Positions 9,177 to 45,022 of a DNA stretch of 64,000 nucleotides are shown piece after piece. How positions within the stretch are numbered: position 1 is the first letter of the stretch; each line of letters opens with the position of its first letter. The notes beneath the pieces were generated by a model, which saw only the letters and a list, made by a program, of their open reading frames with translations, searched no databases and had not been told where the DNA came from. This stretch comes from Octopus vulgaris (lineage: Eukaryota), in contig OX597817.1 in NCBI GenBank assembly GCA_951406725.2, positions 80,104,001 to 80,168,000 of the forward strand, in the 5' to 3' direction. The position numbers and the translations under genes are program-made.

Positions 9177-9710
9177 CCCTCCTTTCTGTTAGGAGGCACA
9201 AACAGTTACACACAAACACAAATGCACATGCACACACACACATACACACACAATGTGTGTGTATATTATCGACATACATACTCAGTGTATGTGCTCTGCT
9301 TGTTTGCCGGTAGGCTGCACACATGGCATGGAGCAGATGACTTCCCCCAAAGTGCTGCATGTTTAAACATCTGGAAGTCATGGACATCTGAAACAACTCA
9401 CCCCAAATGCCATTTAGAAGCAATGAACATCGATGTTTCATCATTTTTGTAGCTTATCAACATCACGTACCTGGACCAAATTGGAGGCAAATGACACTAT
9501 ACAAAGAGTATAATTATCCATTTGCTGGTAAGCCCTGACAAATGCATACATAAGAATAAATTCAAATATGAATTTGAATTTATGCAACATTAGCAGCACA
9601 AGTGTTGTAGACGTTATGGACCAGACATACTTATGTACACTCCTTGCTTGTTTGCTGGTATGCTGCGATTTGGCATGGTAAATATATAGCCATACAGTAT
9701 GGTAAAAAGA

Positions 9711-9940
9711 CAGTGAGCTGGTAGAATCGTTATCATGCCAGGTGAAATGCTTAGTGGTATTTCATCTGCCATTACATTCTGAGTTCAAATTCCACCGAAG
9801 TCAACTTTGCCTTTCAATCATTTCGGGGTCGATAAATTAAGTACCATTTATGCACTGGGGTTGATGTAATCGACTTAATCCCTTTGTCTGTCGTTGTTTG
9901 TCCCCTCTATGTTGAGCACCTTGTGGGCAAAAAAGAAATA
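9711..9940 (+). mobile_element. SINE family 2 (long tail) inserted in the head of a SINE family 1 copy
   Basis: gagctggtagaatcgtta...ctgagttcaaattcc...gcaccttgtgggcaaaaaagaaata, followed directly by agaagcttgcttcc..accacatgg (SINE1 head). Confidence 0.75.
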
Positions 9941-10320
9941 AGAAGCTTGCTTCCTGACCACATGGTCCCAGTGGTTAGACACATGGCCAAGTTGTAGCAC
10001 TTTGGGCAAGTGTCTTCTACTATAGCCTCAGGTCGACCAAGGCCTCGTAAGTGGATTTGGAAGATGGGAATTGAAAGAAGCCTGTCATATGCATGTGTGT
10101 GTGTGTTTGTATGTCTGTGTATGTGTGTGTGTGTGTTTGTCCTCCTGCCATAGTTTGACAACTGACACTGTTGTGTATATTTCCCTGTAATTTAGTGACC
10201 AATAGAATAAGTGCCAGGCTTAGAAAGAATAAATCCTGGGGTTGATTTCTTCCAGTAAGACCCTTTAAGGCAGTGCTCCAGTATGGCCATAGTGAAATAA
10301 CTGAAACAAATAAAAGAATA
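9941..10320 (+). mobile_element. SINE family 1 (tRNA-derived head, internal microsatellite)
   Basis: ttgggcaagtgtcttctactatagcct...ggatttgg...ctgaaacaaataaaaga, shared with many copies in the window. Confidence 0.75.
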
Positions 10321-13732: not shown

Positions 13733-14400
13733 ATACAGGGGTTGGACAAAATAATGGAAACACCTTATAATTTCAAACAAGTTTATTTTAATATGGGGTA
13801 AGAACTCAAAGTTTGAATAATTTCCAAAGGAATTTTTGTCCATTCTTCAGCTAAAACAGTCTCCAGTTCTTGTAGTGATGATGGTGGAGGATATCGACTC
13901 CTTACTTGGTTTTCTAAAATGCACCATAAATGTTCAATAATATTGAGATCTGGAGACTGTGGTGGCCAGATAAGATGTTCAACTTCACTAGAATGTTGCT
14001 CATGCCATTCAGTAATAACTTTAGCTGTGTGAATCGGTACATTATTATCCTGAAAGATTGTGTTTCCCTCCAGAAACAGTTTAACAACTATAGGATGAAT
14101 TTGATCAGATAAAATGCATAAATAGTCTTGACTATTAATTCTGCCATGAGGGAAGCCATTGGGCCAGATGATTTCCAAGATACAATTACAGATCCTCCTC
14201 CATGTTTAACAGTTGGGTCAAATGCTTCTTTTGGCTGTCTCCACATGTATACTTGGCCGGTAAAGATGACTCGTCTGAGAAAATAACATTCTTCCACTGT
14301 TCTAGGGACCAATTCTGTAGGTTTTTACTCCACTCTAAATGCTTTGGTATTCAAGTACTATTTTTCACACTTTGTTTTGCACTTTTGTGCTAACCTGTGT
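13733..14400 (-). mobile_element. Tc1-family DNA transposon relic (DDE C-terminus plus one TIR)
   Basis: TVKHGGGSVIV, IFQDNNVPIHTAK and WPPQSPDLNIIEHLW motifs; TA-CAGGGGTTGGACAAAATAATGGAAACACC terminus at 13733. Confidence 0.85.
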
Positions 14401-19506: not shown

Positions 19507-19662
19507 CGGGCTTCTTTCAGTTTCCATCTACCATATCCACTCACAAGGATTTGGTCGGCCCGAGGCTATAATAGAAGACACTTGCCCAAGGTGTCACGCA
19601 GTGGAGATGAACCCGGAACCATGTGGTTGGTAAGCAAGCTACTTACCACACAGCCACTCTGT
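19243..19662 (-). mobile_element. SINE family 1, near full length
   Basis: ttttacttgtttcagtcatttgactgcggccatgctggagcac...ggtaagcaagctacttaccacacagccact, with an uninterrupted head. Confidence 0.85.
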
Positions 19663-24640: not shown

Positions 24641-24839
24641 TTACTCTCTTTTACTTGTTTCAGTCATTTAACTGCGGCCATGCTGGAGCACCGCCTTTAG
24701 TCGAGCAAATCAACCCCGGGACTTATTCTTTGTAAGCCCAGTACTTATTCTATCGGTCTCTTTTTGCCGAACCGCTAAGTGACGGGGACGTAAACACATC
24801 AGCATCGGTTGTCAAGCAATGCTAGGGGGACAAACACAG

Positions 24840-24874
<35 letters not shown>

Positions 24875-25015
24875 CGACAGGCTTCTTTCAGTTTCCGTCT
24901 ACCAAATCCACTCACAAGGCATTGGTCGGCCCGAGGCTATAGCAGAAGACACTTGCCCAAGATGCCACGCAGTGGGACTGAACCCGGAACCATGTGTTTG
25001 GTTAGCAAGCTACTT
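24641..25015 (-). mobile_element. SINE family 1, 3' portion (host of array A)
   Basis: Follows the SINE1 consensus up to ggttagcaagctactt, where it is interrupted. Confidence 0.9.
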
Positions 25016-27073
25016 TATTTCATTTAATTTGCCACAAGGGCAGCACAAAGAGTAGCTACGGGCTGGACAAGGACATTAATGGATGATGGTGGTGATTGAT
25101 GAATATGGTGATGGGAGAAGTCAGAAAGCGCCCGCCGACTTTTGCTTCTCTAAAACAATGTTTTTTTTTTTTTTTTCAATATTTTACAAAATTTCAAGAA
25201 TTACAAAAATTTCAAAAAATTCCAAAAAATTTTTCACAAAAATTTTAATTAGCAATTTACACTTTTAAAAGTCTCTTCAGAGGCAATAAACCTCTGTCAC
25301 AATGTAACACAATTACAATTTTACGTTACCTGATCGATGAACTCTCTTGCTTTAATGACGCAATCGTCCATCGTCAGGCTTCCGCATACAGGTATGACTT
25401 GCAAGAGATCCTCCGGGAAAGAATTCTCGATCCTGCACATATCATTTTCGAGTAGGACCTCTGCAGCCAGCTGCGAAGGCCACTCGGGATACTCCATGCA
25501 GGACCGAAGTCCCTCCCATTCGTTTCTCTTCCTCCTCTTACGTATTTCATTTTCTATAGTGCCTCCTTTATGGAAGAGGACTACGTAAAATTTCTCCGGC
25601 ATCACAATCGCCGGAGGACACATGGGAGACGCCCTCTGGGTGTTACAGTCCGCTGGTGGCGTTCCGTTCCTCTTTTTCTTTTTACGCTGGGCCTCGGGAG
25701 GTTGAGGTTCCGGTGCTATACGCACCGGGTCCTCTTTTTCTTCCGCAGCCTCCGGTTCCTTTTGTGGGTCGCCATTGCTCCCCACTCTTCTTTTTCTTTT
25801 GGAGGAGGATTTTTCCCCCTCCTCACTTTGTTTCTCTCCCTCCATTGGTGGGGCAGGGAGAGGCTCTGATATTAACTTCTCCAGGATCCTACTCTGGTTC
25901 CTGGGGCAGTTTTTCTTAATGTGGCCGGTCTCCGAACACAGGTGACACTTTGGAGCGCGTCCCTCAAGCATCACCGGATACTTGGACCCGGCCATCTTCA
26001 GGAAGTCCGGCAAAACCAGACTCTTGGCCGACTGGGTCCACAGTGTCAAAGTAGCCTTTGCCCTTTTCCAGTTAGCCGCAGGCTGCATTCTCACGTTTAG
26101 GATCTTGGCGCTACCACTACTCAGACCCCGGCGGATGGAATCTTCCACCCACTCGGGCTCAAAGCCGGGCGGCAGGCCGCAGACCCATAAACGTATCAAT
26201 TTTTCCCCCCTATAGCTTGGGAGAAACAGAATCTCTTCGCCCTCAATGGGCCTACTCGCGAAATCGCAAGCTGCTTTAGGGGAGTCAAACAGCAACCAAA
26301 TCGTTGCGTATTTGGCTCCCCGTTGAATATGTTTAACGGCTGGCATATAGTCTGCCAGCTCGTTCATAATTGTGTCTTTCGGAAAGACCATTATGGTGTC
26401 GAGTGACTTCGAATATGTCCTCAGCACCACTGTCTTTTCCTCAAGTTCGTTCAAATATTTTTTGGGAGGTGTTAATTCCCACACTGTGAAATTCCTTGCC
26501 ATAACGTAAAAAAAGCAGTTCAAGATGTTACAAAATAAATTAGACACAGAAAGGAGAATGAAAAAGGCAACAGAAGGGAAGAAATAAAGTTAAAATGGCA
26601 GTTCAAAAAAAGTTCTTTTTTTTTTTACAAATGAATGATAGACGGAGAAAGAGAGTTCAAATCAGGCAAAGGAATTAATTTTTCTTTTTTTTTTGTTCAC
26701 TTTTTCGGCCAAAAATTGTATTCCAGGCCAAGTATATGGTTGGTACAACACCTTGGTAAATAATCCTTGGTAAATCCGTGGATAACACAACGACAATTTC
26801 AAAAATAATTTTTGTAGACGGAATACGCCGCCTCAAAAACACAATTTTCTTCACACCCGACAACAGGCAGAAAAATTATATCCGGAGCAAAGTGGAGCCT
26901 TATTATCTGCTAAAAAATATTTAATGCTAAAAAACATTAATGCAAGTAATAAAACTTCACTTCGCTCACAAAAATACAAAATTCCTACCTTTAGTCGAGT
27001 CGAAAGTTCAATATTTCACGTTGAAACAACGTGGCAACCGGAGCAGCAAAATAACACGTCCGAACAGTTCAGA
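25016..27073 (-). mobile_element. ORF1-only non-autonomous non-LTR retroelement, family A copy 1
   Basis: Single Gag/ORF1-like ORF, A-rich 3' end, one 5' monomer, flanked by ggttagcaagctactt at 25000-25015 and 27074-27089. Confidence 0.8.
25321..26502 (-). CDS. Tx1/L1-type ORF1 (Gag-like) nucleic-acid-binding protein, 393 aa from MARNFTVW; CCHC zinc knuckle
   Basis: Intact ORF with EGRAPKCHLCSETGHIKKNCP (C-X2-C-X4-H-X4-C), an RRM-like N-terminal half and basic NLS-like tracts; start chosen by alignment with copies 2 and 3. Confidence 0.8.
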   Translation of the reverse strand: MARNFTVWELTPPKKYLNELEEKTVVLRTYSKSLDTIMVFPKDTIMNELADYMPAVKHIQRGAKYATIWLLFDSPKAACDFASRPIEGEEILFLPSYRGEKLIRLWVCGLPPGFEPEWVEDSIRRGLSSGSAKILNVRMQPAANWKRAKATLTLWTQSAKSLVLPDFLKMAGSKYPVMLEGRAPKCHLCSETGHIKKNCPRNQSRILEKLISEPLPAPPMEGEKQSEEGEKSSSKRKRRVGSNGDPQKEPEAAEEKEDPVRIAPEPQPPEAQRKKKKRNGTPPADCNTQRASPMCPPAIVMPEKFYVVLFHKGGTIENEIRKRRKRNEWEGLRSCMEYPEWPSQLAAEVLLENDMCRIENSFPEDLLQVIPVCGSLTMDDCVIKAREFIDQVT

Positions 27074-27373
27074 GGTTAGCAAGCTACTTTATTTTATTTA
27101 ATTTGCCACAAGGGCAGTACACAGATAGTAGCTACGGGCTGGACATAGACATTAATGAATGATGGTGATGAAGTGAAGATGATGATGGGAGAAGACGAAA
27201 GCGCCCGCCGACCCCCGCTTCTCTAAGACAATGTTCAATGAATACATTTAGTAAAATGTTCAAAAATGTTCAGAATGTTCAAATTACATTTTTTCAGAGG
27301 AGGTAATAAACCTCCTCTTCAACATGTTTAAAAATGTTCAAAATGTTCAAAAAGTGTTTAACAATTCTCCCCG

Positions 27374-28612
27374 TCAGGTCCCCGAAGCAAATTGTCTTGC
27401 CGCCTGCAGACAACTCTGCGACGACAAGTCGAGGCCTGCAAAGAGAAAAGTAAAATCTTTCCTCTGAAAGGTCTCTGCGACCCTTGTCAAAATATCTTCC
27501 GTTACTACCTCCGCAGCTACCCGCGGAGGCCATAACGGACTCCTTGAGCCGACCGTGTCCTTGCGTTCTCGGTCACCCAAGCCATTTAGAAACTTTTCCA
27601 CCTTCCCTCCCTTGTGGTAAAGGAGGAGAAATAACTCCTCTTCACAGGAAGGGACCTCACACTGATCCGTCAGTAGCACACTTCCCACTGACGGAGCCCT
27701 GTCCGTGGGTGGCACACATCCCACCCGCGGCTCCGTCGGCGACACAGAAACGTCAGACGTCCGACCTCTCCTTTTTCTCCTCCTTCTTTTGGGTGAGACT
27801 GCTAACCCAGGGGACTCCGTCACCAGACACGGGGGAATGCTATCCCCCTCCGCCCCCTGAGCGTTCTTTGGTGGGCAACCGTTGTTGCTCACCAGCCTCT
27901 TTCTTTTCGTGGAGGCAACCTCCTCCACGACTTCCACCGTCTCCCCCTCCAATGAGGGAACGGCGGGCACCTCTTACTTTTCATGTTCCGGGGCGGCACC
28001 ACGGCCCCAGGGACACTTCTTAATATGTCCAGGCTCCGAGCACCGGTGACACTTGGGGGCGTGTCCCTCAAGCATCACCGGATACTTTGACCCGGCCATC
28101 TTCAAGAAGTCTGGCAAAACCAGACTCTTGGCCGACTGGGTCCACAGAGTCAAAGTAGCCTTTCCCCCTTCCCAGTTAGCCGCAGGCTGCATTTTCACAT
28201 TCAGGATCTTGGCGCTACCACCGCTCAGAACCCGGCGGATGGAATCTTCCACCCACTCGGGCTCAAAGCCGGGCGGCAGGCCACAGACCCATAAACGTAA
28301 CAATTTTTCCCCCTTGTAACTGGGGAGAAACAGAATCTCATCGCCCTCAATGGGCTGGGTTGCAAATTTGCAAGCTGCTTCAGCGGAGTCAAATAGCAAC
28401 CATACCGTTGCGTATTTGACTCCCCGTTGAATATGTTTAACGGCTGGCATATAGTCTGCCAGCTCGTTCACAATGGTGTCTCTCGGAAAAACCATTATGG
28501 TGTCGAGTGACTTTGAGTATGTCCTCAACACCACGGTCTTTTCCTCGATTTCGGGCAAATATTTTTTGGGAGGTGTTAATTCCCACACAGTGAAATTCTT
28601 TGCCTTTGCCAT
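27374..28612 (-). pseudogene. Family A ORF1 with an in-frame premature stop (TAA at 27974-27976)
   Basis: ORFs 27974-28612 and 27374-27970 are in the same frame; HEK*EV here versus HEKEKV in copy 3. Confidence 0.8.
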
Positions 28613-28961
28613 AACGTAAAATACAACAGTTCAAAATGGTAAACTAAAATTAGACACAGAAAGGAGAATGAAAATGCAACAGAAGGGAAGAAATCAGAAT
28701 GGCAGTTCAAAAACGTTTTTACAAATAAATAATAGAAGAGAAAGAGAGTTCAAATCAGGCAAAGGAATTCAGTTTTCTTTTTTCTTTTTTTTTTTTTTTT
28801 TCACACTTCTTCGGCCAAAATGGTAATCCAGGCCAAATGCACTTGGTAAACCTTGGTAAATAATCCTTGGTGAAACCCTTGGTAAATAATCCTTGGTAAT
28901 CCGTGGACAACACAACGACAATTTCAACAATAATTTTTTCAGATGGACTATGCCGCTTCAA

Positions 28962-29538
28962 AAATACAATTTCTTTTCACTCGACACAGGCAGAAAAATT
29001 ATATCTGGAGCAAAGTGGAGCCTTATTATTTGCTAAAAAACATTCATGCAAGTAATAAAACTTCACTAAACTCGCTAAAACATAAAACGCCTACCCGTAG
29101 TCGATTCGAACGTTCAACAATTCACGTTGAAATAACGCGACATCAATACAATTTTCTTTCCACTCGACACAGGCAGAAAAATTATATCCGGAGCAAAGTG
29201 GAGCCTTATTATCTGCTAAAAATATTAAATGCTAAAAAAACATTCATGCAAGTAATAAAACTTCACTCCGCTCGCAAAAATACAAAATTCCTACCTTTAG
29301 TCGATTCGAACGTTCAATATTTCACGTTGAAACAACGCGACATCAATACAATTTTCTTTCCACTCGACACAGGCAGAAGAATTATATCTGGAGCAGAGTG
29401 GAGCCTTATTATCTGCTAAAAAATATTTAATGCTAAAAAACATTAATGCAAGTAATAAAACTTCACTTCGCTCACAAAAATATAAAATTCCTACCTTTAG
29501 TCGAGTCGAAAGTTCAACAATTCACGTTGAAACAACGT
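28962..29538. repeat. Three ~185-200-bp tandem monomers in the 5' UTR of copy A2
   Basis: cgacacaggcagaaaaattatatc.ggagcaaagtggagcc recurs at ~28982, ~29165 and ~29365. Confidence 0.85.
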
Positions 29539-29878
29539 TCATCTGGAGCAGCAAAAAAACACGTCCGAACAGTTCAGAGGTTAGCGAGCTACTTTATTTT
29601 ATTTAATTTGCCACAAGGGCAGTACACAGATAGTAGCTACGGGCTGGACATAGACATTAATGAATGATGGTGATGAAGTGAAGATGATGATGGGAGAAGA
29701 CGAAAGCGCCCGCCGACCCCCGCTTCTCTAAGACAATGTTCAATGAATACATTTAGTAAAATGTTCAAAAATGTTCAGAATGTTCAAATTACATTTTTTC
29801 AGAGGAGGTAATAAACCTCCTCTTCAACATGTTTAAAAATGTTCAAAATGTTCAAAAAGTGTTTAACAATTCTCCCCG

Positions 29879-31120
29879 TCAGGTCCCCGAAGCAAATTGT
29901 CTTGCCGCCTGCAGACAACTCTGCGACGACAAGTCGAGGCCTGCAAAGAGAAAAGTAAAATCTTTCCTCTGAAAGGTCTCTGCGACCCTTGTCAAAATAT
30001 CTTCCGTTACTACCTCCGCAGCTACCCGCGGAGGCCATAACGGACTCCTTGAGCCGACCGTGTCCTTGCGTTCTCGGTTACCCAAGCCATTTAAAAACTT
30101 TTCCACCTTCCCTCCCTTGTGGTAAAGGAGGAGAAATAACTCCTCTTCACAGGAAGGGACCTCACACTGATCCGTCAGTAGCACACTTCCCACTGACGGA
30201 GCCCTGTCCGCGGGTGGCACACATCCCACCCGCGGTTCCGTCGGAGACACAGAAACGTCAGACGTCCGACCTCTCCTTTTTCTCCTCCTTTTTTTGGTGG
30301 AGACTGCTAACCCAGGGGACTCCGTCACCAGACACGGGGGAATGCTATCCCCCTCCGCCCCCTGAGCGTTCTTTGGTGGGCAACCGTTGTTGCTCGCCAG
30401 CCTCTTTCTTTTCGTGGAGGCAACCTCCTCCACGACTTCCACCGTCTCCCCCTCCAATGAGGGGACGGCGGGCACCTTTTCCTTTTCATGTTCCGGTGCG
30501 GCACCACGGCCCCCGGGACACTTCTTCTTAATATGTCCAGGCTCCGAGCACCGGTGACACTTGGGGGCGTGTCCCTCAAGCATCACCGGATACTTGGATC
30601 CGGCCATCTTCAAGAAGTCTGGCAAAACCAGACTCTTGGCCGACTGGGTCCACAGAGTCAAAGTAGCCTTACCTCCTTCCCAGTTAGCCGCAGGCTGCAT
30701 TTTCACATTCAGGATCTTGGCGCTACCACCGCTCAGACCCCGGCGGATGGAATCTTCCACCCACTCGGGCTCAAAGCCGGGCGGCAGGCCACAGACCCAT
30801 AAACGTAACAATTTTTCCCCCTTGTAACTGGGGAGAAACAGAATCTCATCGCCCTCAATGGGCTGGGTTGCAAATTTGCAAGCTGCTTCAGCGGAGTCAA
30901 ATAGCAACCATACCGTTGCGTATTTGACTCCCCGTTGAATATGTTTAACGGCTGGCATATAGTCTGCCAGCTCGTTCACAATGGTGTCTCTCGGAAAAAC
31001 CATTATGGTGTCGAGTGACTTTGAATATGTCCTCAACACCACGGTCTTTTCCTCGAGTTCGTGCAAATATTTTTTGGGAGGTGTTAATTCCCACACAGTG
31101 AAATTCTTTGCCTTTGCCAT
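29879..31120 (-). CDS. Tx1/L1-type ORF1 (Gag-like) protein, 413 aa, CCHC zinc knuckle
   Basis: Intact ORF with EGHAPKCHRCSEPGHIKKKCP and a KKRRRKRR basic tract. Confidence 0.8.
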   Translation of the reverse strand: MAKAKNFTVWELTPPKKYLHELEEKTVVLRTYSKSLDTIMVFPRDTIVNELADYMPAVKHIQRGVKYATVWLLFDSAEAACKFATQPIEGDEILFLPSYKGEKLLRLWVCGLPPGFEPEWVEDSIRRGLSGGSAKILNVKMQPAANWEGGKATLTLWTQSAKSLVLPDFLKMAGSKYPVMLEGHAPKCHRCSEPGHIKKKCPGGRGAAPEHEKEKVPAVPSLEGETVEVVEEVASTKRKRLASNNGCPPKNAQGAEGDSIPPCLVTESPGLAVSTKKRRRKRRGRTSDVSVSPTEPRVGCVPPADRAPSVGSVLLTDQCEVPSCEEELFLLLYHKGGKVEKFLNGLGNRERKDTVGSRSPLWPPRVAAEVVTEDILTRVAETFQRKDFTFLFAGLDLSSQSCLQAARQFASGT

Positions 31121-31440
31121 AACGTAAAATACAACAGTTCAAAATGGTAAACTAAAATTAGCCACAGAAAGGAGAATGAAAAAATGCAAAAGAAAGGGAA
31201 GAAATAAAATTAAAAATGGCAGTTCAAAAAAGTTTTTACAAATAAATAATAGACAGAGAAAGAGAGTTCAATTCAGACAAAGGAATTCAGTTTTTTTTTT
31301 TTCCACTTCTTCGGCCAAAAATTGTAATCCAGGCCAAATGCACTGTTGGTAAAACCCTTGGTAAATAATCCTTGGTAATCCGTGGACAACACAACGACAA
31401 TTTCAACAATAATTTTTTCAGACGGACTATGCCGCTTCAA

Positions 31441-31835
31441 AAATACAATTTCTTTTCACTCGACACAGGCAGAAAAATTATATCCGGAGCAAAGTGGAGC
31501 CTTATTATTTGCTAAAAAATATTAAATGCTAAAAAACATTCATGCAAGTAATAAAACTTCACTAAACTCGCTAAAACATAAAACGCCTACCCGTAGTCGA
31601 TTCGAACGTTCAACAATTCACGTTGAAACAACGCGACATCAATACAATTTTCTTTTCACTCGACACAGGCAGAAAAATTATATCTGGAGCAAAGTGGAGC
31701 TCTATCACTTGCTAAAAAATATTAAATGCTAAAAAACATTCATGCAAGTAATAAAACTTCACTTCGCTCGCAAAAATACAAAGTTCCTACCTTTAGTAGA
31801 GACGAAAGTTCAACAATTCACGTTGAAACAACGCG
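31441..31835. repeat. Two ~200-bp tandem monomers in the 5' UTR of copy A3
   Basis: cgacacaggcagaaaaatta at 31461 and 31661. Confidence 0.85.
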
Positions 31836-31869
31836 ACATTTGCCGGAGCAAAAAACAACACGTCTGTCT

Positions 31870-31906
31870 GGTAAGAAGTTACTTACCACACAGCCACTCC
31901 TGCGCC
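31870..31906 (-). mobile_element. SINE family 1 5' head remnant (A-box side), completing the SINE split by array A
   Basis: ggtaagaagttacttaccacacagccactcctgcgcc matches the SINE1 head seen at 48292-48329. Confidence 0.85.
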
Positions 31907-32745
31907 TATTAGTTTCATATCTTTAAATCTTACTCTTTGAATATATTGGAGTTCTTCCCCAGAACATAAAGAAATGAAGAGTGCATTACGTGAAAGACCA
32001 TAAAGAATTCCTTTCTGAAATGTAAGGTAAACAATTCAAACCCACCTTGCCATTTTATGGTTAAATCAATTATCTTTTGTTTTCATATTCAACCACAAAA
32101 GAATTAAGACTTATCATAAAGTAACAAAGATTCCGTAGCAGACTCAGTGAGTGAAATAAAATTGCTATCAATTTTTTAAGCTTTCTTTTTCAGGAAGTGA
32201 TTTAATTTATATCTATCTATCTATCAATTTTTTTATCTAGCTACCTGTGACACTTTCTGCAGCACATGACCAAATTCTATCCTAAAAACGAGCGCACTAG
32301 TTTAAAAATTAAAAAATACAAAATTTAATACGCATATGTTCGGACATACAAGGTAACACCTCAACACTTTACAATGCAAATATATCTGGCCGATATATTA
32401 AAAATTACGAAATCAACCGATCTCTTACAAAATACAACATCCCTACATTACTGGCTCAAGGTTGTGTATCTTTTTTCTCTCAGAAGCGTAAAACATTTCC
32501 CACAATTTTGAATAAAAGATTGGAATTGGCGAAATCTCACAGAAAATTTATTGATATTTGAAGATATTCCAGATACCAACTGGCTAAAATATTTCCTCTC
32601 TTACATATTGGATTTCACATATCATAAAAATTGCTACATATTGAACGAAAAGCATTCAGTGTTTATCAAATAGAAACTTTATCAAAAAATCGCCAGTATT
32701 TTTTTTTTGTGTGTTCTACAAAAAAGTCGTATTTTTATATTATCG

Positions 32746-34463
32746 ATTTCTTTATTACCCACTAGGGGCGACACAGAGGTGGACAGCAAAAGACATGGGG
32801 ACATAGAACATTTATAATTAAAATTTATGAAAAATGAATTGTTAGGTGAAAGAAAATGATATTATGAAAGCGATACCGACGGCCCCATCCGTCAGCATCA
32901 CTTACCTGTCCTTTGTTTTTCATCGTCCCTTGAATGTTCTTTGCCAATACGAATAAATTCCATATCCATTCTTACTCCGAAATACTCATTCATATTTTCC
33001 ACGAATTCATCGCTCATTCTTATATCTTTCACCTCCCAATTCTCTCTTTCACACCTCCCCATAAACTCACCTATGTTCTTCTTTTCAATCACAGCATACC
33101 TAGTCTCTCCAACATCATACCATTTATACTCTTCCATTAGACTTTTAACTTCCCTCTGTTCAGTCATAGTACAAATGTACGGCCTGGGTTCGATTTCAAT
33201 CTCTTGTGTGTGTGTATTCTTTTTTTTTTTTGTTTTCTTGTTGGGGGGAGCGGGTGGGTTCAATGTCTGCATGGATAGGGTGGGACTCAGAGGGTGTGGG
33301 TGGTTTTGGGGTAGATTGGAGTTCCATATTATTTTCTTTTCCACGTATTCTTCTCTTCCTCTTACTTCCAGCTTCCTTCCATTTCTGTGTATTCTCTTCC
33401 TCTGTTTCCTTCTCCTCTGGTTTCTGCTTCTCTCTCTCTGGTTCGGAATCCGTTTCTTTCCCTGGGGGAGGGCAGAAGGCTCTTATGTGACCCCTCAGGC
33501 CACACTTGTAACAACGTGGAGCCCTGCCCTCCACCCACACTCTCATGATCACGTCTCCCAGTCTGATGCTTTCCGTCAGGTCCACCAGTACCTCGGTCTC
33601 TGCCTGTACGTTCAGCTCCACTGTTACGCCTCTCCAGCCCTCGGACTTAACCGAGGCATGGAGAATATCCACCTCGTCCTCGTGGCCGCTGATCACAGCC
33701 GCCACAATCCATTCTGCCTCCACGTTTGGTGGCACTCCCTCCACCCTTATTCGTGTAATCCTCCTGTTTAAATACGTAGGTAATAGGGTTACCTTTTCTG
33801 ACTTCACCGCCTTCGCCGCCATCTTCCTCGCTGCAGACTCAGTTTTGAAATGCACAACTACGGTACCGTACTTGGATCCTCGAGTCAGAAAATTTATTTC
33901 CTCCTCAGTTCTTCGCAGGGCTTCCTCTATCCATTCCATGGTTACAACTTCTACCCTCTTCCTTTCGTTTGCGAACACCCTGTAAATAATGGTCCTCTTG
34001 TCATACCATTCTTTTCTCCTGGGTGTCGGTGATAGTTCCACCTCACCGCTTTCCTTTTTCATGTATTTCTGGTAACTTGCCAACTTGGCCATGTCGACCC
34101 TTTTCTCTTCCGCCTTCTTGGTTACACCGGCATAGGTATAACCCAGCTTCTTTTCCAAATTCCTTGCTGCCATTTCTAGCTCCTTCTCAGACGTAGGCAG
34201 GTCTGATAAAGACTCGAAAACTCCAGCCTTTTCTTCCATCAGCTTCATTGCAATTGCCTGTTCCAGTTCCTCATCTGTCGTGGACAAGTCTGTTAGAGAC
34301 TCATAGTCCATTTCCTTTCTGTCTGACAGACCGAAAACGGCCGCCAAAACAGAAAAAGTGTAACGCGCTGAACGAGCGAAACGCGAAACCGCGTCAACGC
34401 CGTTCAGAATTTCCACAACAACAACAACGCTTTTTGTTCTTTTTTACCGAATTTCAGGAGCCG
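32746..34463 (-). mobile_element. ORF1-only retroelement, family B copy 1
   Basis: First unit of a five-copy head-to-tail array; 3' end ...gtgggtaataaagaaat on the minus strand. Confidence 0.8.
32898..34311 (-). pseudogene. Family B ORF1, one frameshift in a homopolymer near 33220-33250
   Basis: ORFs 33196-34416 and 32898-33344 together reconstruct the 472-aa protein of copies 4 and 5. Confidence 0.75.
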
Positions 34464-36184
34464 TATTTCTTTATTACCCACTAAGGGGCTACGAAGAGTG
34501 GCTGACATCACAAAACATGGGGACATAGAACATTATAATTAAACTTTATGAACATGAATTGTTAAACGAAAAAAAATGATAAAATGAAAGCGATACCAAC
34601 GGCCCCGTCCGTCAGCATCACTTACCTGTCCTTTGTTTTTCATAGTCACTTGAATTTTCTTTGCCAATACGAATAAATTCCATATCCATTCTTACTCCGA
34701 AATACTCATTCATATTTTCCACGAATTCATCGCTCATTCTTATATCTTTCACCTCCCAATTCTCCCTTTCACACCTCCCCATAAACCCACCTATGTTCTT
34801 TTTTTCAATCACAGCATACCTAGTCTCTCCAACATCATACCGTTTATACTCTTCCATTAGACTTTTAACTTCCCTCTGTTCAGTCATAGTACAAATGTAC
34901 GGCCTGGGTTCGATTTCAATCTCTTGTGTGTGTGTATTCTTTTTTTTTTTTGTTTTCTTGTTGGGGGGAGCGGGTGGGTTCAATGTCTGCATGGATAGGG
35001 TGGGACTCAGAGGGTGTGGGAGGTTTTGGGGTAGATTGGAGTTCCATATTATTTTGTTTTTTTCCACATATTCTTCTCTTCCTCTTACTTCCAGCTTCCT
35101 TCCATTTCTGTGTATTCTCTTCCTCTGTTTCCTTCTCCTCTGGTTTCTGCTTCTCTCTCTCTGGTTCGGGATCCATTTCTATCCCTGGGGAGGGCAGAAG
35201 GCTCTTATGTGACCCCTCAGGCCACACTTGTAACAACGTGGAGCCCTGCCCTCCACCCACACTCTCATGATCATTTCTCCCAGTCTGATGCTTTCCGTCA
35301 GGTCCACCAGTACCTCGGTCTCTGCCTGTACGTTCAGCTCCACTGTTACGCCTCTCCAGCCCTCGGACTTAACCGAGGCATGGAGAATATCCACTTCGTC
35401 CTCGTTGCCGCTGATCACAGCCGCCACAATCCATTCTGCCTCCACGTTTGGTGGCACTCCCTCCACCCTTATTCGTGTAATCCTCCTGTTTAAATACGTA
35501 GGTAACAGTGTTACCTTTTCCGACTTCACCGCCTTCGCTGCCATCTTCCTCGCTGCAGATTCACTTTTAAAGTGCACAACTACGGTCCCGTACTTGGATC
35601 CTCGAGTCAGAAAATTTATTTCCTCCTCAGTTCTTCGCAGGGCTTCCTGTATCCATTCCATGGTTACAACTTCTACCCTCTTCCTTTCGTTTGCGAACAC
35701 CCTGTAAACAATGGTCCTCTTATCATACCATTCTTTTCTCCTGGGTGTCGGTGATAGTTCCACCTCACCGCTTTCCTTTTTCATGTATTTCTGGTAACTT
35801 GGCAACTTGGCCATGTCGACCCCTTTCTCTTCCGCCTTCTTGGTAACACCGGCATAGGTATAACCCAGCTTCTCTTCCAATTCCCTTGCTGCCGTTTCTA
35901 GCTCCTTCTCAGACGTAGGCAAGTCTGATAAAGACTCGAAAACTCCAGCCTTTTCTTCCATCAGCTTCATTGCAATTGCCTGTTCCAGTTCCTCATCTGT
36001 CGTGGACAAGTCTGTTAAAGACTCATAGTCCATTTCCTTCTGTCTGACAGACCGAAAACGGCCGCCAAAACAGAAAAAGTGTAACGCGCTGAACGAGCGA
36101 AACGCGAAACCGCGTCAACGCCGTTCAGAATTTCCACAACAACAACAACGCTTTTTGTTCTTTTTTACCGAATTTCAGGAGCCG
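34464..36184 (-). mobile_element. ORF1-only retroelement, family B copy 2
   Basis: Junctions caggagccg|tatttctttattaccc at both ends. Confidence 0.8.
34618..36033 (-). pseudogene. Family B ORF1, two homopolymer frameshifts
   Basis: Split over ORFs 35179-36033, 34916-35260 and 34618-35067. Confidence 0.75.
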
Positions 36185-37820
36185 TATTTCTTTATTACCC
36201 ACTAAGGGGCTACGAAGAGTGGCTGACATCACAAAACATGGGGACATAGAACATTATAATTAAACTTTATGAACATGAATTGTTAAACGAAAAAAATGAT
36301 AAAATGAAAGCGATACCAACGGCCCCGTCCGTCAGCATCACTTACCTGTCCTTTGTTTTTCATAGTCACTTGAATGTTCTTTGCCAATACGAATAAATTC
36401 CATATCCATTCTTACTCCGAAATACTCATTCATATTTTCCACGAATTCATCGCTCATTCTTATATCTTTCACCTCCCAATTCTCCCTTTCACACCTCCCC
36501 ATAAACCCACCTATGTTCTTTTTTTCAATCACAGCATACCTAGTCTCTCCAACATCATACCGTTTATACTCTTCCATTAGACTTTTAACTTCCCTCTGTT
36601 CAGTCATAGTACAAATGTACGGCCTGGGTTCGATTTCAATCTCTTGTGTGTGTGTATTCTTTTTTTTCTTTTGTTTTCTTGTTGGGGGGGAGCGGGTGGG
36701 TTCAATGTCTGCATGGATAGGGTGGGACTCAGAGGGTGTGGGAGGTTTTGGGGTAGATTGGAGTTCCATATTATTTTCTTTTTTTCCACATATTCTTCTC
36801 TTCCTCTTACTTCCAGCTTCCTTCCATTTCTGTGTATTCTCTTCCTCTGTTTCCTTCTCCTCTGGTTTCTGCTTCTCTCTCTCTGGTTCGGGATCCATTT
36901 CTTTCCCTGGGGAGGGCAGAAGGCTCTTATGTGACCCCTCAGGCCACACTTGTAACAACGTGGAGCCCTGCCCTCCACCCACACTCTCATGATCACTTCT
37001 CCCAGTCTGATGCTTTCCGTCAGGTCCACCAGTACCTCGGTCTCTGCCTGTACGTTCAGCTCCACTGTTACGCCTCTCCAGCCCTCGGACTTAACCGAGG
37101 CATGGAGAATATCCACTTCGTCCTCGTGGCCGCTGATCACAGCCGCCACAATCCATTCTGCCTCCACGTTTGGTGGCACTCCCTCCACCCTTATTCGTGT
37201 AATCCTCCTGTTTAAATACGTAGGTAACAGTGTTACCTTTTCCGACTTCACCGCCTTCGCTGCCATCTTCCTCGCTACAGATTCACTTTTAAAGTGCACA
37301 ACTACGGTCCCGTACTTGGATCCTCGAGTCAGAAAATTTATTTCCTCCTCAGTTCTTCGCAGGGCTTCCTCTATCCATTCCATGGATACAACTTCTACCC
37401 TCTTCCTTTCGTTTGCGCACACCCTGTAAACAATGGTCCTCTTATCATACCATTCTTTTCTCCTGGGTGTCGGTGATAGTTCCACCTCACCGCTTTCCTT
37501 TTTCATGTATTTCTGGTAACTTGGCAACTTGGCCATGTCGACCCCTTTCTCTTCCGCCTTCTTGGTAACACCGGCATAGGTATAACCCAGCTTCTCTTCC
37601 AATTCCCTTGCTGCCGTTTCTAGCTCCTTCTCAGACGTAGGCAAGTCTGATAAAGACTCGAAAACTCCAGCCTTTTCTTCCATCAGCTTCATTGCAATTG
37701 CCTGTTCCAGTTCCTCATCTGTCGTGGACAAGTCTGTTAGAGACTCATAGTCCATTTCCTTCTGTCTGACAGACCGAGAACGGCCGCCAAAACAGAAAAA
37801 GTGTAACGCGCTGAACGAGC
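36185..37820 (-). mobile_element. ORF1-only retroelement, family B copy 3 (more 5'-truncated)
   Basis: 5' end stops at ...ctgaacgagc (37820), inside the 5' UTR hairpin. Confidence 0.8.
36338..37755 (-). pseudogene. Family B ORF1, one frameshift just after the zinc knuckle
   Basis: The G-run near 36908 is one base short; split over ORFs 36604-37755 and 36338-36982. Confidence 0.75.
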
Positions 37821-37822
37821 TG

Positions 37823-39585
37823 ATTTTTTATTACCCACTAAGGGGCGACACAGAGGGGGACAACAAAAGACATGGGGACATAGAACATTATAATTAAACT
37901 TTATGAACATGTATTGTTAAACGAAAAAAAATGATAAAATGAAAGCAATACCAACGGCCCCGTCCGTCAGCATCACTTACCTGTCCTTTGTTTTTCATAG
38001 TCACTTGAATGTTCTTTGCCAATACGAATAAATTCCATATCCATTCTTACTCCGAAATACTCATTCATATTTTCCACGAATTCATCGCTCATTCTTATAT
38101 CTTTCACCTCCCAATTCTCCCTTTCACACCTCCCCATAAACTCACCTATGTTCTTCTTTTCAATCACAGCATACCTAGTCTCTCCAACATCATACCATTT
38201 ATACTCTTCCATTAGACTTTTAACTTCCCTCTGTTCAGTCATAGTACAAATGTACGGCCTGGGTTCGATTTCAATCTCTTGTGTGTGTGTATTCTTTTTT
38301 TTCTTTTGTTTTCTTGTTGGGGGGGAGCGGGTGGGTTCAATGTCTGCATGGATAGGGTGGGACTCAGAGGGTGTGGGAGGTTTTGGGGTAGATTGGAGTT
38401 CCATATTATTTTCTTTTTTTCCACATATTCTTCTCTTCCTCTTACTTCCAGCTTCCTTCCATTTCTGTGTATTCTCTTCCTCTGTTTCCTTCTCCTCTGG
38501 TTTCTGCTTCTCTCTCTCTGGTTCGGGATCCATTTCTTTCCCTGGGGGAGGGCAGAAGGCTCTTATGTGACCCCTCAGGCCACACTTGTAACAACGTGGA
38601 GCCCTGCCCTCCACCCACACTCTCATGATCACTTCTCCCAGTCTGATGCTTTCCGTCAGGTCCACCAGTACCTCGGTCTCTGCCTGTACGTTCAGCTCCA
38701 CTGTTACGCCTCTCCAGCCCTCGGACTTAACCGAGGCATGGAGAATATCCACTTCGTCCTCGTGGCCGCTGATCACAGCCGCCACAATCCATTCTGCCTC
38801 CACGTTTGGTGGCACTCCCTCCACCCTTATTCGTATAATCCTCCTGTTTAAATACGTAGGTAACAGTGTTACCTTTTCCGACTTCACCGCCTTCGCTGCC
38901 ATCTTCCTCGCTGCAGATTCACTTTTAAAGTGCACAACTACGGTCCCGTACTTGGATCCTCGAGTCAGAAAATTTATTTCCTCCTCAGTTCTTCGCAGGG
39001 CTTCCTGTATCCATTCCATGGTTACAACTTCTACCCTCTTCCTTTCGTTTGCGAACACCCTGTAAACAATGGTCCTCTTATCATACCATTCTTTTCTCCT
39101 GGGTGTCGGTGATAGTTCCACCTCCCCGCTTTCCTTTTTCATGTATTTCTGGTAACTTGGCAACTTGGCCATGTCGACCCCTTTCTCTTCCGCCTTCTTG
39201 GTTACACCGGCATAGGTATAACCCAGCTTCTCTTCCAATTCCCTTGCTGCCATTTCTAGCTCCTTCTCAGACGTAGGCAAGTCTGATAAAGACTCGAAAA
39301 CTCCAGCCTTTTCTTCCATCAGCTTCATTGCAATTGCCTGTTCCAGTTCCTCATCTGTCGTGGACAAGTCTGTTAAAGACTCATAGTCCATTTCCTTCTG
39401 TCTGACAGACCGAAAACGGCCGCCAAAACAGAAAAAGTGCAACGCGCTGAACGAGCGAAACGCGAAACCGCGTCAACGCCGTTCAGAATTTCCACAACAA
39501 CAACAACGCTTTTTGTTCTTTTTTACCGAATTTCAGGAGCCGAAAAAATATGACTTCTTGTCACTATTTAAATCTCTTTTTTTTA
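37823..39585 (-). mobile_element. ORF1-only retroelement, family B copy 4 (longest 5' end)
   Basis: 5' end extends to ...cactatttaaatct. Confidence 0.8.
37973..39391 (-). CDS. Tx1/L1-type ORF1 (Gag-like) protein, 472 aa from MDYESL; acidic helical N-terminus, RRM-like region, CCHC knuckle
   Basis: Intact ORF with VEGRAPRCYKCGLRGHIRAFCP; aligns with family A (RGSKYGTVVVHF vs RGAKYATIWLLF; LLPTY...IRVEGVPP...EW vs FLPSY...LWVCGLPP...EW). Confidence 0.85.
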   Translation of the reverse strand: MDYESLTDLSTTDEELEQAIAMKLMEEKAGVFESLSDLPTSEKELEMAARELEEKLGYTYAGVTKKAEEKGVDMAKLPSYQKYMKKESGEVELSPTPRRKEWYDKRTIVYRVFANERKRVEVVTMEWIQEALRRTEEEINFLTRGSKYGTVVVHFKSESAARKMAAKAVKSEKVTLLPTYLNRRIIRIRVEGVPPNVEAEWIVAAVISGHEDEVDILHASVKSEGWRGVTVELNVQAETEVLVDLTESIRLGEVIMRVWVEGRAPRCYKCGLRGHIRAFCPPPGKEMDPEPEREKQKPEEKETEEENTQKWKEAGSKRKRRICGKKENNMELQSTPKPPTPSESHPIHADIEPTRSPPTRKQKKKKNTHTQEIEIEPRPYICTMTEQREVKSLMEEYKWYDVGETRYAVIEKKNIGEFMGRCERENWEVKDIRMSDEFVENMNEYFGVRMDMEFIRIGKEHSSDYEKQRTGK

Positions 39586-41330
39586 TTACCCACTAAGGGG
39601 CTACGAAGAATGGCGGACATAACAAAACATGGGGACATAGAACATTATAATTAAACTTTATGAAAATGAATTGTTAAATGAAAAAATGATTAAATGAAAG
39701 CGATACCAACGGCCCCGTCCGTCAGCATCACTTACCTGTCCTTTGTTTTTCATAGTCACTTGAATGTTCTTTGCCAATACGAATAAATTCCATATCCATT
39801 CTTACTCCGAAATACTCATCCATATTTTCCACGAATTCATCGCTCATTCTTATATCTTTCACCTCCCAATTCTCGCATTCACACATCACCATAAAGTCAC
39901 CTATGTTCTTCTTTTCAATCACAGCATACCTAGTCTCACCAACATCATACCATTTATACTCTTCCATTAAACTTTTAACTTCTTTCTGTTCAGTCATAGT
40001 ACAAATGTACGGCCTGATATCGATTTCAATCTCTTGTGTGTGTGTATTCTTTTTTTCTTTTGTTTTCTTGTTGGGGGGGGAGCGGGTGGGTTCAATGTCT
40101 GCATGGATAGGGTGGGATTCAGAGGGTGTGGGAGGTTTTGGGGTAGATTGGAATTCCATATTATTTTCTTTTTTTCCACATATTCTTCTCTTCCTCTTAC
40201 TTCCAGCTTCCTTCCATTTCTGTGTATTCTCTTCCTCTGTTTCCTTCTCCTCTGGTTTCTGCTTCTCTCTCTCTGGTTCGGGATCCATTTCTTTCCCTGG
40301 GGGAGGGCAGAAGGCTCTTATGTGACCCCTCAGGCCACACTTGTAACAACGTGGAGCCCTGCCCTCCACCCACACTCTCATGATCACTTCTCCCAGTCTG
40401 ATGCTTTCCGTCAGGTCCACCAGTACCTCGGTCTCTGCCTGTACGTTCAGCTCCACTGTTACGCCTCTCCAGCCCTCGGACTTAACCGAGGCATGGAGAA
40501 TATCCACTTCGTCCTCGTGGCCGCTGATCACAGCCGCCACAATCCATTCTGCCTCCACGTTTGGTGGCACTCCCTCCACCCTTATTCGTGTAATCCTCCT
40601 GTTTAAATACGTAGGTAACAGTGTTACCTTTTCCGACTTCACCGCCTTCGCTGCCATCTTCCTCGCTGCCGATTCACTTTTAAAGTGCACAACTACGGTC
40701 CCGTACTTGGATCCTCGAGTCAGAAAATTTATTTCCTCCTCAGTTCTTCGCAGGGCTTCCTCTATCCATTCCATGGATACAACTTCTACCCTCTTCCTTT
40801 CGTTTGCGCACACCCTGTAAACAATGGTCCTCTTATCATACCATTCTTTTCTCCTGGGTGTCGGTGATAGTTCCACCTCACCGCTTTCCTTTTTCATGTA
40901 TTTCTGGTAACTTGGCAACTTGGCCATGTCGACCCCTTTCTCTTCCGCCTTCTTGGTTACACCGGCATAGGTATAACCCAGCTTCTCTTCCAATTCCCTT
41001 GCTGCCATTTCTAGCTCCTTCTCAGACGTAGGCAAGTCTGATAAAGACTCGAAAACTCCAGCCTTTTCTTCCATCAGCTTCATTGCAATTGCCTGTTCCA
41101 GTTCCTCATCTGTCGTGGACAAGTCTGTTAAAGACTCATAGTCCATTTCCTTCTGTCTGACAGACCGAAAACGGCCGCCAAAACAGAAAAAGTGCAACGC
41201 GCTGAACGAGCGAAACGCGAAACCGCGTCAACGCCGTTCAGAATTTCCACAACAACAACAACGCTTTTTGTTCTTTTTTACCGAATTTCAGGAGCCGAAA
41301 AAATATGACTTCTTGCCACTATTTAAATCT
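39586..41330 (-). mobile_element. ORF1-only retroelement, family B copy 5 (longest 5' end)
   Basis: Same 5' terminus as copy 4 (atttaaatct at 41321-41330). Confidence 0.8.
39728..41146 (-). CDS. Tx1/L1-type ORF1 (Gag-like) protein, 472 aa
   Basis: Intact ORF, near-identical to copy 4, with a more divergent C-terminal domain. Confidence 0.85.
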   Translation of the reverse strand: MDYESLTDLSTTDEELEQAIAMKLMEEKAGVFESLSDLPTSEKELEMAARELEEKLGYTYAGVTKKAEEKGVDMAKLPSYQKYMKKESGEVELSPTPRRKEWYDKRTIVYRVCANERKRVEVVSMEWIEEALRRTEEEINFLTRGSKYGTVVVHFKSESAARKMAAKAVKSEKVTLLPTYLNRRITRIRVEGVPPNVEAEWIVAAVISGHEDEVDILHASVKSEGWRGVTVELNVQAETEVLVDLTESIRLGEVIMRVWVEGRAPRCYKCGLRGHIRAFCPPPGKEMDPEPEREKQKPEEKETEEENTQKWKEAGSKRKRRICGKKENNMEFQSTPKPPTPSESHPIHADIEPTRSPPNKKTKEKKNTHTQEIEIDIRPYICTMTEQKEVKSLMEEYKWYDVGETRYAVIEKKNIGDFMVMCECENWEVKDIRMSDEFVENMDEYFGVRMDMEFIRIGKEHSSDYEKQRTGK

Positions 41331-41502
41331 GATTCTGGTTCTTTGCCAACCAGTCAAATCTTGACGACTATGTTTGAAGTGCTAAAGAATTTTTTGCGTA
41401 TTTATTGTCATGCTAATTCCCTACTTCCTACATTTGAATAATCCACAGTGTAAAACACTGATTTTACAAATAATCTTTTAATATTATTTGTGTATATAAA
41501 AG

Positions 41503-42285
41503 TGGGAGCTGGCAGAAATGCTTATCGGCATTTCGTCTGCCGTTACATTCTGAGTTCAAATTCCGCCGAGGTCGACTTTGCCTTTCATCCTTTCGGGGTC
41601 GATAAATTAAGTACCAGTTACGTACTGGGGTCGATGTAATCGACTTAACCCCTGTGTCTGTCCTTGTTTGTCTCCTCTGTGTTTAGCCCCTTGTGGGCAA
41701 TAAAGAAATAAGAATCGTTAGCACGCCAGGCGAAATTCTTAGCGGTATTTCGTCTGTCTTTAGGTTCTGAGTTCAAATTCCATCGAGGTCGATTTTCCCT
41801 TTCGTCCTTTCGGGGTCTATAAATTAAGTACCAGTTGCGTACTGGGGTCGATGTATCGACTAGCCGCTTCCCCCAAAACTTCGGACCTTGTGCCTAGAGC
41901 AGAAATGAATATTATTTGTATATATGTTGCCGTGCCGGGAAAATTCTTTGAGGCATTTCTTCTGATTTTACTTTCTGGGTTCAAATGCTGCCGGTGTCCA
42001 CTTTGCCTTTTATCATTTCGGGGTGAATAAAATAAGTGCCAGTTGATTTAATCGACTTAACCCCTCCCACAAACTTGTTGACTTTGTGCAAAAATTTGAA
42101 CCAAACGTTATTTGAGTATATAAGGCAACGAGCTGGTGGGGTTGTTAGCATGCTGGGCAAAATGCTCAGCTGTATTTTGCCTTTAATCCTTTCGGGGTCG
42201 ATAAAATGAGTACCGATTGATCGTTGGGATCAATGTAATCGACTTCCCGCTCGATCGAACTTTAAAGCCAAAATTTGAAATTTGA
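41503..42285 (+). mobile_element. Cluster of SINE family 2 copies (long-tail copy followed by short-tail copies)
   Basis: Repeated ttctgagttcaaattcc...ttcggggtcgataaattaagtaccagtt; tail gtttagccccttgtgggcaataaagaaata at 41681-41710. Confidence 0.8.
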
Positions 42286-44309: not shown

Positions 44310-45022
44310 CTATTTCTTTACTACCTACAAGGGTCTAAACACAGTAGGTACAAACAAGGACAGACAAACAGTGCGTAACTGGTACTTATTTAATCACCCC
44401 GAAAGGATGAAAGGCAAAGTCGACCTCGACGGAATTTGAACTCAAGGAGCTAAACACAGAGGGTACAAACAAGGACAGACAAACGGATTAAGTCGATTAC
44501 ATCGACCCCAGTGCGTAACTGGTACTTATTTAATCGACCCCGAAAGGATGAAAGGTAAAGTCGACCTCGACGGAATTTGAACTCAGAACGTAGCGGTAGA
44601 CGAAATACCTATTTCTTTACTACCCACAAGGAGCTAAGCACAGAGGGTACAAACAAGGACAGACAAACGGATTAAGTCGATTACATCTCGACCCCAGTGC
44701 GTAACTGGTACTTATTTAATCGACCCCAAAAGGATGAAAGGCAAAGTCGACCTCGACGGAATTTGAACTCAGAGCGTAACGGCAGACGAAATACCTATTT
44801 CTTTATTACCCACAAGGGGCTAAACACAGAGGGAACAAACAAGGACAGACATAGGTATTAAGTCGATTACATCGACCCCAGTTCGTAACTGGTACTTAAT
44901 TTATCGACCCCGAAAGGATGAAAGGCAAAGTCGACCTCGGCGGAATTTGAACTCACAACGTAACACAGACGAAATACCGCTAGGCATTACGCCCGGCGTG
45001 CTAACGTTTCTGCCAGCTTGCC
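44310..45022 (-). mobile_element. Head-to-tail tandem of four SINE family 2 long-tail units
   Basis: tatttcttta.tacccacaagg.gctaa.cacagaggg.acaaacaaggacagac repeated at ~44311, ~44445 (partial), ~44610 and ~44796. Confidence 0.85.

Follow-up and report, generated by a model that had tools for sequence, protein, structure and literature searches.

Target-specific retrotransposons that lack long terminal repeats (LTRs) are known for rRNA, tRNA and small nuclear RNA genes, microsatellites, telomeres, and DNA and LTR transposons (PMC4494074, PMC5035012). In crocodilians, SINEU-3, which is moved by Tx1-Mar, resides within Mariner-N4_AMi in 313 of 347 copies, and its tandem copies sandwich a 16-bp target-site duplication (TSD) (Kojima 2015, PMC4494074); relatives display a weaker preference (13-23%, compared with 90%; PMC4494074). 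Here we analyse a 64,000-nucleotide stretch of Octopus vulgaris DNA (contig OX597817.1, positions 80,104,001 to 80,168,000; hereafter the window), in which a single copy of a short interspersed nuclear element (SINE) is interrupted in its tRNA-like head by three units of a non-LTR element that we call family A. The window is rich in repeats, and contains two SINE families (labelled SINE1 and SINE2 here), microsatellites, and two arrays, A and B, of units that bear an open reading frame (ORF). No non-LTR element that targets a SINE head was found in the open-access literature, including PMC3747384, PMC4758252, PMC8967140, PMC4824008, PMC3531059, PMC8869645, PMC5035012 and PMC9004415; Repbase, subscription papers and the supplementary target lists of PMC4494074 were outside this scope.

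Results

The interrupted SINE1 copy lies on the minus strand, as do all features of arrays A and B given below, and units A3, A2 and A1 follow one another head to tail within it in the orientation of the SINE itself. Alignment to an intact copy places the target site, B box, body and tail of the host SINE1 at 24641-25015, with the B-box-like motif at 24974-24984, and its head at 31885-31906, including the A-box-like motif at 31886-31896. As originally predicted, SINE1 breaks off at 25000-25015 and resumes at 31870-31906, about 6.85 kb further on (6,854 bases by our count), and the motif positions confirm that the site lies between the A-box-like and B-box-like motifs, one base past the A box and ahead of the B box. 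Uninterrupted sites, predicted near 19630, 20378 and 48292, are also present, their exact starts being 19629, 20375 and 48292, such that the second position required correction. The host SINE1 has the features of a tRNA-derived SINE, namely an A box, a B box, a short multicopy body and a simple-repeat tail, and ARAGORN and Rfam returned no tRNA match in the window, including for the SINE1 heads. It is 95.9% identical to an intact sister copy at 47.9-48.3 kb (355 of 370 aligned bases).

The same 16-mer had been expected at all four junctions, and this was borne out exactly for two of them and to within one mismatch for a third. The B-box-side (3'-side) copy of the target duplication (25000-25015, from pattern matching and alignment) is repeated exactly at the A2/A1 junction (27074-27089) and with one mismatch at the A3/A2 junction (29579-29594), both found by pattern matching. 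The head-side (5'-side) copy at 31870-31884, recovered by alignment, has only 15 bases: relative to the 25000 copy it has lost one base and carries two substitutions, three differences in all, and ungapped search missed it. When up to three mismatches are allowed, the 16-mer matches the window seven times, compared with 0.43 expected by shuffling, and none of 100 shuffles reached seven; one of these matches (42813) lies outside any SINE. A3 and A1/A2 agree to the base in where the duplication starts and stops.

The differences among the junction copies carry information on the history of insertion. One base, private to this host copy, is common to the three left junction copies and is absent from the 31870 copy and from all three intact young SINE1 copies (0/3). 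Since the inner junctions repeat this host-private base of the B-box-side duplicate, re-insertion occurred via that duplicate. Counted outwards, the junction differences number 0, 1 and 3, which fits an order in which A3 is the oldest, although these numbers are small. The intact site can form a hairpin (-7.6 and -5.0 kcal/mol) that is gone at the re-used junction, and whole SINE1 heads fold no better than their shuffles. A cruciform as the target signal was rejected for re-insertion, given that the hairpin is lost there.

Unit A1 (25016-27073; 2,058 bp) is an ORF1-only non-LTR element with one 5' repeat of ~200 bp and a conserved 3' tail of ~55 bases, while A2 (27090-29578; 2,489 bp) has three such repeats and an ORF stopped after 212 amino acids, and A3 (29595-31869; 2,275 bp) has two repeats and a 5' terminus unlike that of A1 and A2. 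Each unit has a single ORF followed by about 300 bases of 3' region up to the tail. The ORF encodes 393 amino acids in A1 (25321-26502) and is open for 413 amino acids in A3 (29879-31120). The ~200-bp tandem repeats of the 5' regions, one to three per unit, are found at 26838-27031, 28963-29537 and 31442-31839, and recall the monomer promoters of mouse L1.

A1 and A3 are separate insertions, derived from different source lineages, at the same base and with the same duplication ends. Their N-terminal parts are identical at 177 of 203 residues, with a synonymous divergence (dS) of 0.29 and a ratio of nonsynonymous to synonymous divergence (dN/dS) of 0.22, and beyond this part only 58 of 185 residues are identical (31%). 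This divergence under selection far exceeds that of the host SINE from its sister, hence the insertions were independent. As such values are found inside a young SINE, the divergence of A1 from A3 predates the site and took place under purifying selection.

The A1 protein comprises two RRM-fold domains (residues about 11-99 and 100-181), a CCHC knuckle (185-200) and a divergent C-terminus. The structure predicted for its first 206 residues from a 28-row alignment (pLDDT 88.8, pTM 0.74) matched tandem-RRM proteins in Foldseek at E 5e-5, and the predicted fold resembles the RRM of La (Z 8.7, root-mean-square deviation 2.7, 82 aligned) and RRM3 of HuR (Z 7.9, root-mean-square deviation 2.8, 73 aligned); the knuckle falls just short of the Pfam cut-off (E 0.001). 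By this predicted fold, the A protein is a type I ORF1 protein (ORF1p) of non-LTR elements; in animals other than mammals, its combination of RRM and CCHC is described as 'consistent with the Tx1 clade' (PMC5203782). An Atlas row with ZCCHC3-type RNA-binding domains at 0.90 for the A protein is a lead only, and a link between ZCCHC3 and Tx1 was not found in the open-access literature, including PMC9004415. The closest database relative is 66% identical, and all relatives bearing an organism name (10 of the 20 looked up) belong to Octopus or Argonauta. At least 10 octopod database proteins that are named 'uncharacterized' or are misleadingly named are relatives of A ORF1, a result of use for annotation. 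P0009, named 'EPM2A-interacting 1-like', is actually an ORF1 relative, and P0032, P0062 and P0048 are relatives of 800-860 amino acids, with a common C-terminal region that is unnamed by Pfam and no reverse transcriptase (RT).

Family A encodes an ORF1-type protein alone and propagates as a unit, as it is multicopy, carries a 16-bp TSD and keeps its ORF under purifying selection. By these marks it would be an ORF1-only non-autonomous long interspersed nuclear element (LINE), of the class of HAL1, HeT-A and Ag-Sponge. The units had been taken for Tx1 elements, which they are not as such: the Tx1 clade has two ORFs, with an apurinic/apyrimidinic-type (APE) endonuclease and an RT, whereas each A unit has one ORF1-type ORF, no ORF2 and no RT. 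With one ORF per unit, A can only be a non-autonomous derivative if it belongs to Tx1, with which it shares the type I ORF1p (RRM and CCHC). Of the 137 listed ORFs of at least 70 amino acids outside the arrays, 135 were examined (all but two that overlap the SINE), and neither an RT nor an APE endonuclease was found among them. Weak searches yielded no fused ORF1-ORF2 proteins of greater length, and no locus could be confirmed for a distant long homologue at which a following ORF2 might be sought. The A tail is common to array B and SINE2, as expected for a LINE-derived tail; the LINE that bears it was not found.

Other copies of family A were sought in four public runs aligned to 25000-28100, consisting of three contig sets and one raw-read run (X22, 10 reads). 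The loose ends described here are from the 18 rows listed of 905, the contig counts have no denominator, and depths are not copy numbers. Family A is multicopy, since variants abound in the three contig sets, each of which covers all 30 bins. In X1, nine contigs have a loose end at 25004 (the most among the rows listed; agreement 0.82) and read into a SINE1 body whose allele is that of the family and not that of the host. By their sequence, other SINE1 copies appear to be joined to an A-like tail at the same site. In X13, four and five contigs diverge at 25034 and 25051, respectively, into other tail-like sequence (among the rows listed), an indication that the SINE1 site is also occupied by further members of the tail clan. 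In one X1 contig, the 16-mer occurs together with a tail of A2 type, and 22 unlike bases stand ahead of it.

Within the window, alignments show a SINE2 copy (9716-10317, plus strand) whose 3' tail adjoins an older-type SINE1 at the same head base (junction 9940). A candidate remnant of the SINE1 head upstream of SINE2 at 9716 (10 of 14 bases) was too weak to accept, being matched in 50 of 5,000 random windows. Because there is no convincing head upstream, the junction may be a SINE2-SINE1 dimer and not an insertion in place. Two A-tail-like matches, at 9561 (in a degenerate stretch at 9561-9630, minus strand, just upstream of the SINE2-SINE1 junction) and at 21171, had chance-level scores and were not used. 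No match to the A tail came up when metagenome contigs were scanned by pattern, nor any to the SINE1 head in contigs of viruses and prokaryotes, as expected for an animal.

Array B (32746-41330), taken for comparison, lies just 0.8 kb from array A and consists of five head-to-tail ORF1-only units with homologous ORF and tail. These units are 96-99% alike, differ in their 5' truncations and have three kinds of 5' junction, and their ORF is homologous to that of family A (hhalign 99.9%, 25-27% identity). Homology over the final ~55 bases links A, array B and SINE2: the A1 tail matches SINE2 at 38 of 57 bases, which none of 1,000 shuffles equalled, and its seven best non-self matches in the window are all SINE2 or B tails. 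The reconstructed empty site of array B (32735-32750, 41325-41345) resembles the position in a SINE2 head at which a SINE2 tail landed at 41706 (judged by eye, about 10 of 11 bases match), and only a few bases are duplicated there. SINE2 itself forms tandems at 41500-41860 (plus strand) and 44311-44988 (minus strand), in which the tail of one copy runs straight into another copy at its head or in its interior; the tandem at 44443-44978 has a 186-bp period and 2.9 copies.

Elsewhere in the window, the elements at 7613-8972 and 61896-63138 carry long inverted terminal repeats (219 and 243 bp, 97-99%). Both resemble Penelope-type 3' fragments, and the latter has a GIY-YIG match (E 0.0004). A Tc1/mariner transposase fragment (DDE_3, E 2e-11) lies at 13786-14205 on the minus strand, and a 62-bp minisatellite of 6.3 copies at 4801-5193.

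Discussion

Taken as a whole, the locus is best explained by the joint action of family A and an autonomous partner LINE, whose endonuclease prefers the site one base after the A box of SINE1; we consider this explanation fairly likely, and a preference of A for the SINE1-head site is likewise probable. We propose that A RNA is transcribed from its own ~200-bp 5' repeats and coated by the A ORF1 protein, and that the ORF2 protein of the partner would bind the conserved 3' tail. Judging from the TSD, the partner would nick GGT^AAG on the antisense strand and then cut the sense strand 16 bases further downstream, and would prime reverse transcription, leaving the 16-bp duplication. A3 and A1 entered separately from different source lineages, as their divergence shows, and the private base shows that the later entry used the B-box-side duplicate. 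This duplicate retains the 16-mer and the downstream SINE arm, with the upstream arm swapped for the tail of the previous unit. Since the re-used duplicate thus has a replaced upstream arm and no hairpin, the endonuclease would recognise bases on the downstream side of the first nick, and growth of the array would be one-way, with A3, at the head, presumably the first to enter. The proposal that each duplicated target permits re-insertion and in this way builds arrays holds for the B-box-side duplicate; however, the other duplicates were apparently not used, and a duplicated target is unnecessary for arrays of this clan because array B formed with neither a SINE target nor a 16-bp duplication. 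As for the proposed role of SINE1 as a safe harbour, the repeat is dispersed, so the gain from targeting it would be only the avoidance of exons.

The targeting of SINE1 by these elements, as put forward in the original prediction, is borne out in part, in that independent insertions recur at one head base (seen in the A1/A3 divergence, the contigs and the SINE2 tail). A target preference has been defined by over 20% of flanks being of one type (Kojima 2015, PMC4494074); here, the window offers two insertions that hit one base independently, and a single run offers nine contigs, without a denominator. Several observations weigh against a preference for SINE1. Array B lacks both a SINE flank and a 16-bp spacer and shows a few duplicated bases at most, and five of the six aligned SINE2 3' ends are not at the SINE1 site. 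The tail clan as a whole is thus not SINE1-specific, and the preference, if real, is either A's own or graded. The head-side copy differs at 3 of 16 positions, which is above the expectation from the age of the SINE. No contig among the rows listed spans array A, and the nine X1 contigs could carry SINE2-type tails or a SINE2-SINE1 dimer instead of A, these being similar at the 80% setting. Finally, SINEs make up 11.6% of an octopus genome (PMC13282606), an abundance that makes a lone nested insertion little evidence.

This abundance also lends weight to an explanation without true SINE specificity, in which chance or a weak hot spot brought A3 into an abundant SINE and microhomology then drew A1 to the A-rich tail of A3, much as units of B and SINE2 seem to attract one another. 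Array B, with its five units and three kinds of 5' junction, and the SINE2 tandems at 41.5-41.9 and 44.3-45.0 kb indeed arose without a SINE1 site, and the A and SINE2 junctions have 3 to 5 bases of microhomology between tail and target. Yet priming by the tail does not predict that both events should place the second nick at one and the same base, 16 downstream, and other SINE1 copies bear a related tail at the same base, which leaves this explanation unlikely. We give somewhat less credence still to an evolved target in the D-loop of real tRNA genes, or in the RNA polymerase III (Pol III) complex, with the far more numerous SINE1 heads struck as look-alikes. The nick falls one base after the GG of the A box, a position conserved in tRNAs. 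Dada insertions in tRNA genes favour the A box and the anticodon arm (PMC8869645); against this, recognition appears to rest on the downstream 16-mer, a sequence of the SINE family, and no tRNA gene was found in the window for comparison. A single insertion followed by unequal crossing-over between TSDs, an origin that had been raised at the outset, would account for head-to-tail units separated by a TSD and for the likeness of A2 to A3. It is refuted for A1 and A3 by their dS of 0.29, dN/dS of 0.22 and C-termini only 31% identical inside a SINE 96% like its sister, and has next to no chance of explaining all three units.

For A2 alone, the choice is closer. A2 is 98.6% identical to A3 from the ATG to the 3' end, and we lean towards a third insertion, from a sister of A3. 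It may quite conceivably, if less probably, have arisen as a duplicate when the 200-bp 5' repeats of A1 and A3 exchanged unequally, or be an allelic copy that was placed in tandem during assembly, in which case there were two insertions. A2 combines an A1-type 5' terminus with an A3-type body, as such a copy would, and has no differences from A3 in the last 484 bases, compared with 22 in the next 1,039 (Fisher P 0.0003); this difference-free stretch shows that conversion or recombination took place. The variant letters of A2 are also mostly private, as public contigs mostly match A3 at the seven listed positions. However, 11 of the 22 A2-A3 substitutions are synonymous, compared with 24-29% expected (P 0.006-0.03), and the outer 5' repeats of A2 are 94.8% identical to those of A1 and 92.2% to those of A3, such that there is no clean two-part chimera.

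The partner of family A is, by a slight balance of the evidence, a member of the Tx1 clade, as suggested by the ORF1 type, the length of the TSD and the presence of active L1-Tx1 families. A conserved structured tail with short terminal repeats is at least as typical of CR1, L2 or RTE partners as of Tx1, which weighs against a Tx1 partner. Nor is the type I ORF1p exclusive to Tx1 (PMC5203782). O. vulgaris has 13 recently active L1-Tx1 families (PMC13282606 Table 1), and RTE, Dong-R4 and CR1 are likewise active in this species (PMC13282606).

The A ORF1p might itself act as an address label, tethering a borrowed ORF2p to Pol III-type heads, for example via factors at the intact B box. We raise this because the A, B and SINE2 tails are homologous, and may thus be served by the same or a sister RT/endonuclease, yet only A sits at the SINE1 A box with a 16-bp duplication; nevertheless, we regard it as improbable. 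If it were true, octopods would possess swappable ORF1-only 'adaptors' that retarget one LINE machine and both parasitise and silence SINE promoters. The contrast between arrays A and B lends itself naturally to the question of which protein, ORF1p or ORF2p, determines the target, and the polar array would reveal which side of the nick is read by the endonuclease. A dispersed SINE head as the target of a protein-coding non-autonomous element would add a three-tier parasitism, of LINE, ORF1-only passenger and SINE landing pad, set in genomes in which SINEs form about a tenth of the DNA. No known mechanism is overturned by these findings.

One-directional head-to-tail arrays such as array A are also built by HeT-A. 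In common with HAL1 (L1), HeT-A (Jockey) and Ag-Sponge (CR1), family A encodes one ORF1-type protein and has 5' and 3' LINE parts without an RT, and the ORF1 protein of such non-autonomous LINEs is thought to multimerise with that of the partner (PMC5786205). Family A differs from these elements in its type I ORF1p with a single knuckle, in its defined 16-bp SINE target and in its octopod host. Target specificity within another repeat is likewise described for Xenopus Tx1 in Tx1D, Keno in U2, Tx1-8_Crp and Tx1-4_AMi in LTR elements, and Tx1-9_AMi in Harbinger; these, however, are autonomous elements with an endonuclease and an RT, and no SINE is named there as a target (PMC4494074). Dada insertions are similarly concentrated at the A box or anticodon arm of the tRNA sequence, but Dada elements are DNA transposons with real tRNA genes as targets, and SINEs are unmentioned in the main text of that report (PMC8869645). 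Like SINEU-3 with Tx1-Mar, family A would be a non-autonomous element moved in trans into a high-copy transposon, with a 16-bp TSD and tandems that are read as sequential insertions. It differs in that its target is a tRNA-like SINE head, that it encodes an ORF1 protein and that a conserved sequence, not poly(A), forms its tail; an autonomous partner is known for SINEU-3 only. SINEU-3 and Tx1-Mar are the closest precedent, in comparison with which a SINE-head target and an ORF1-coding passenger are new.

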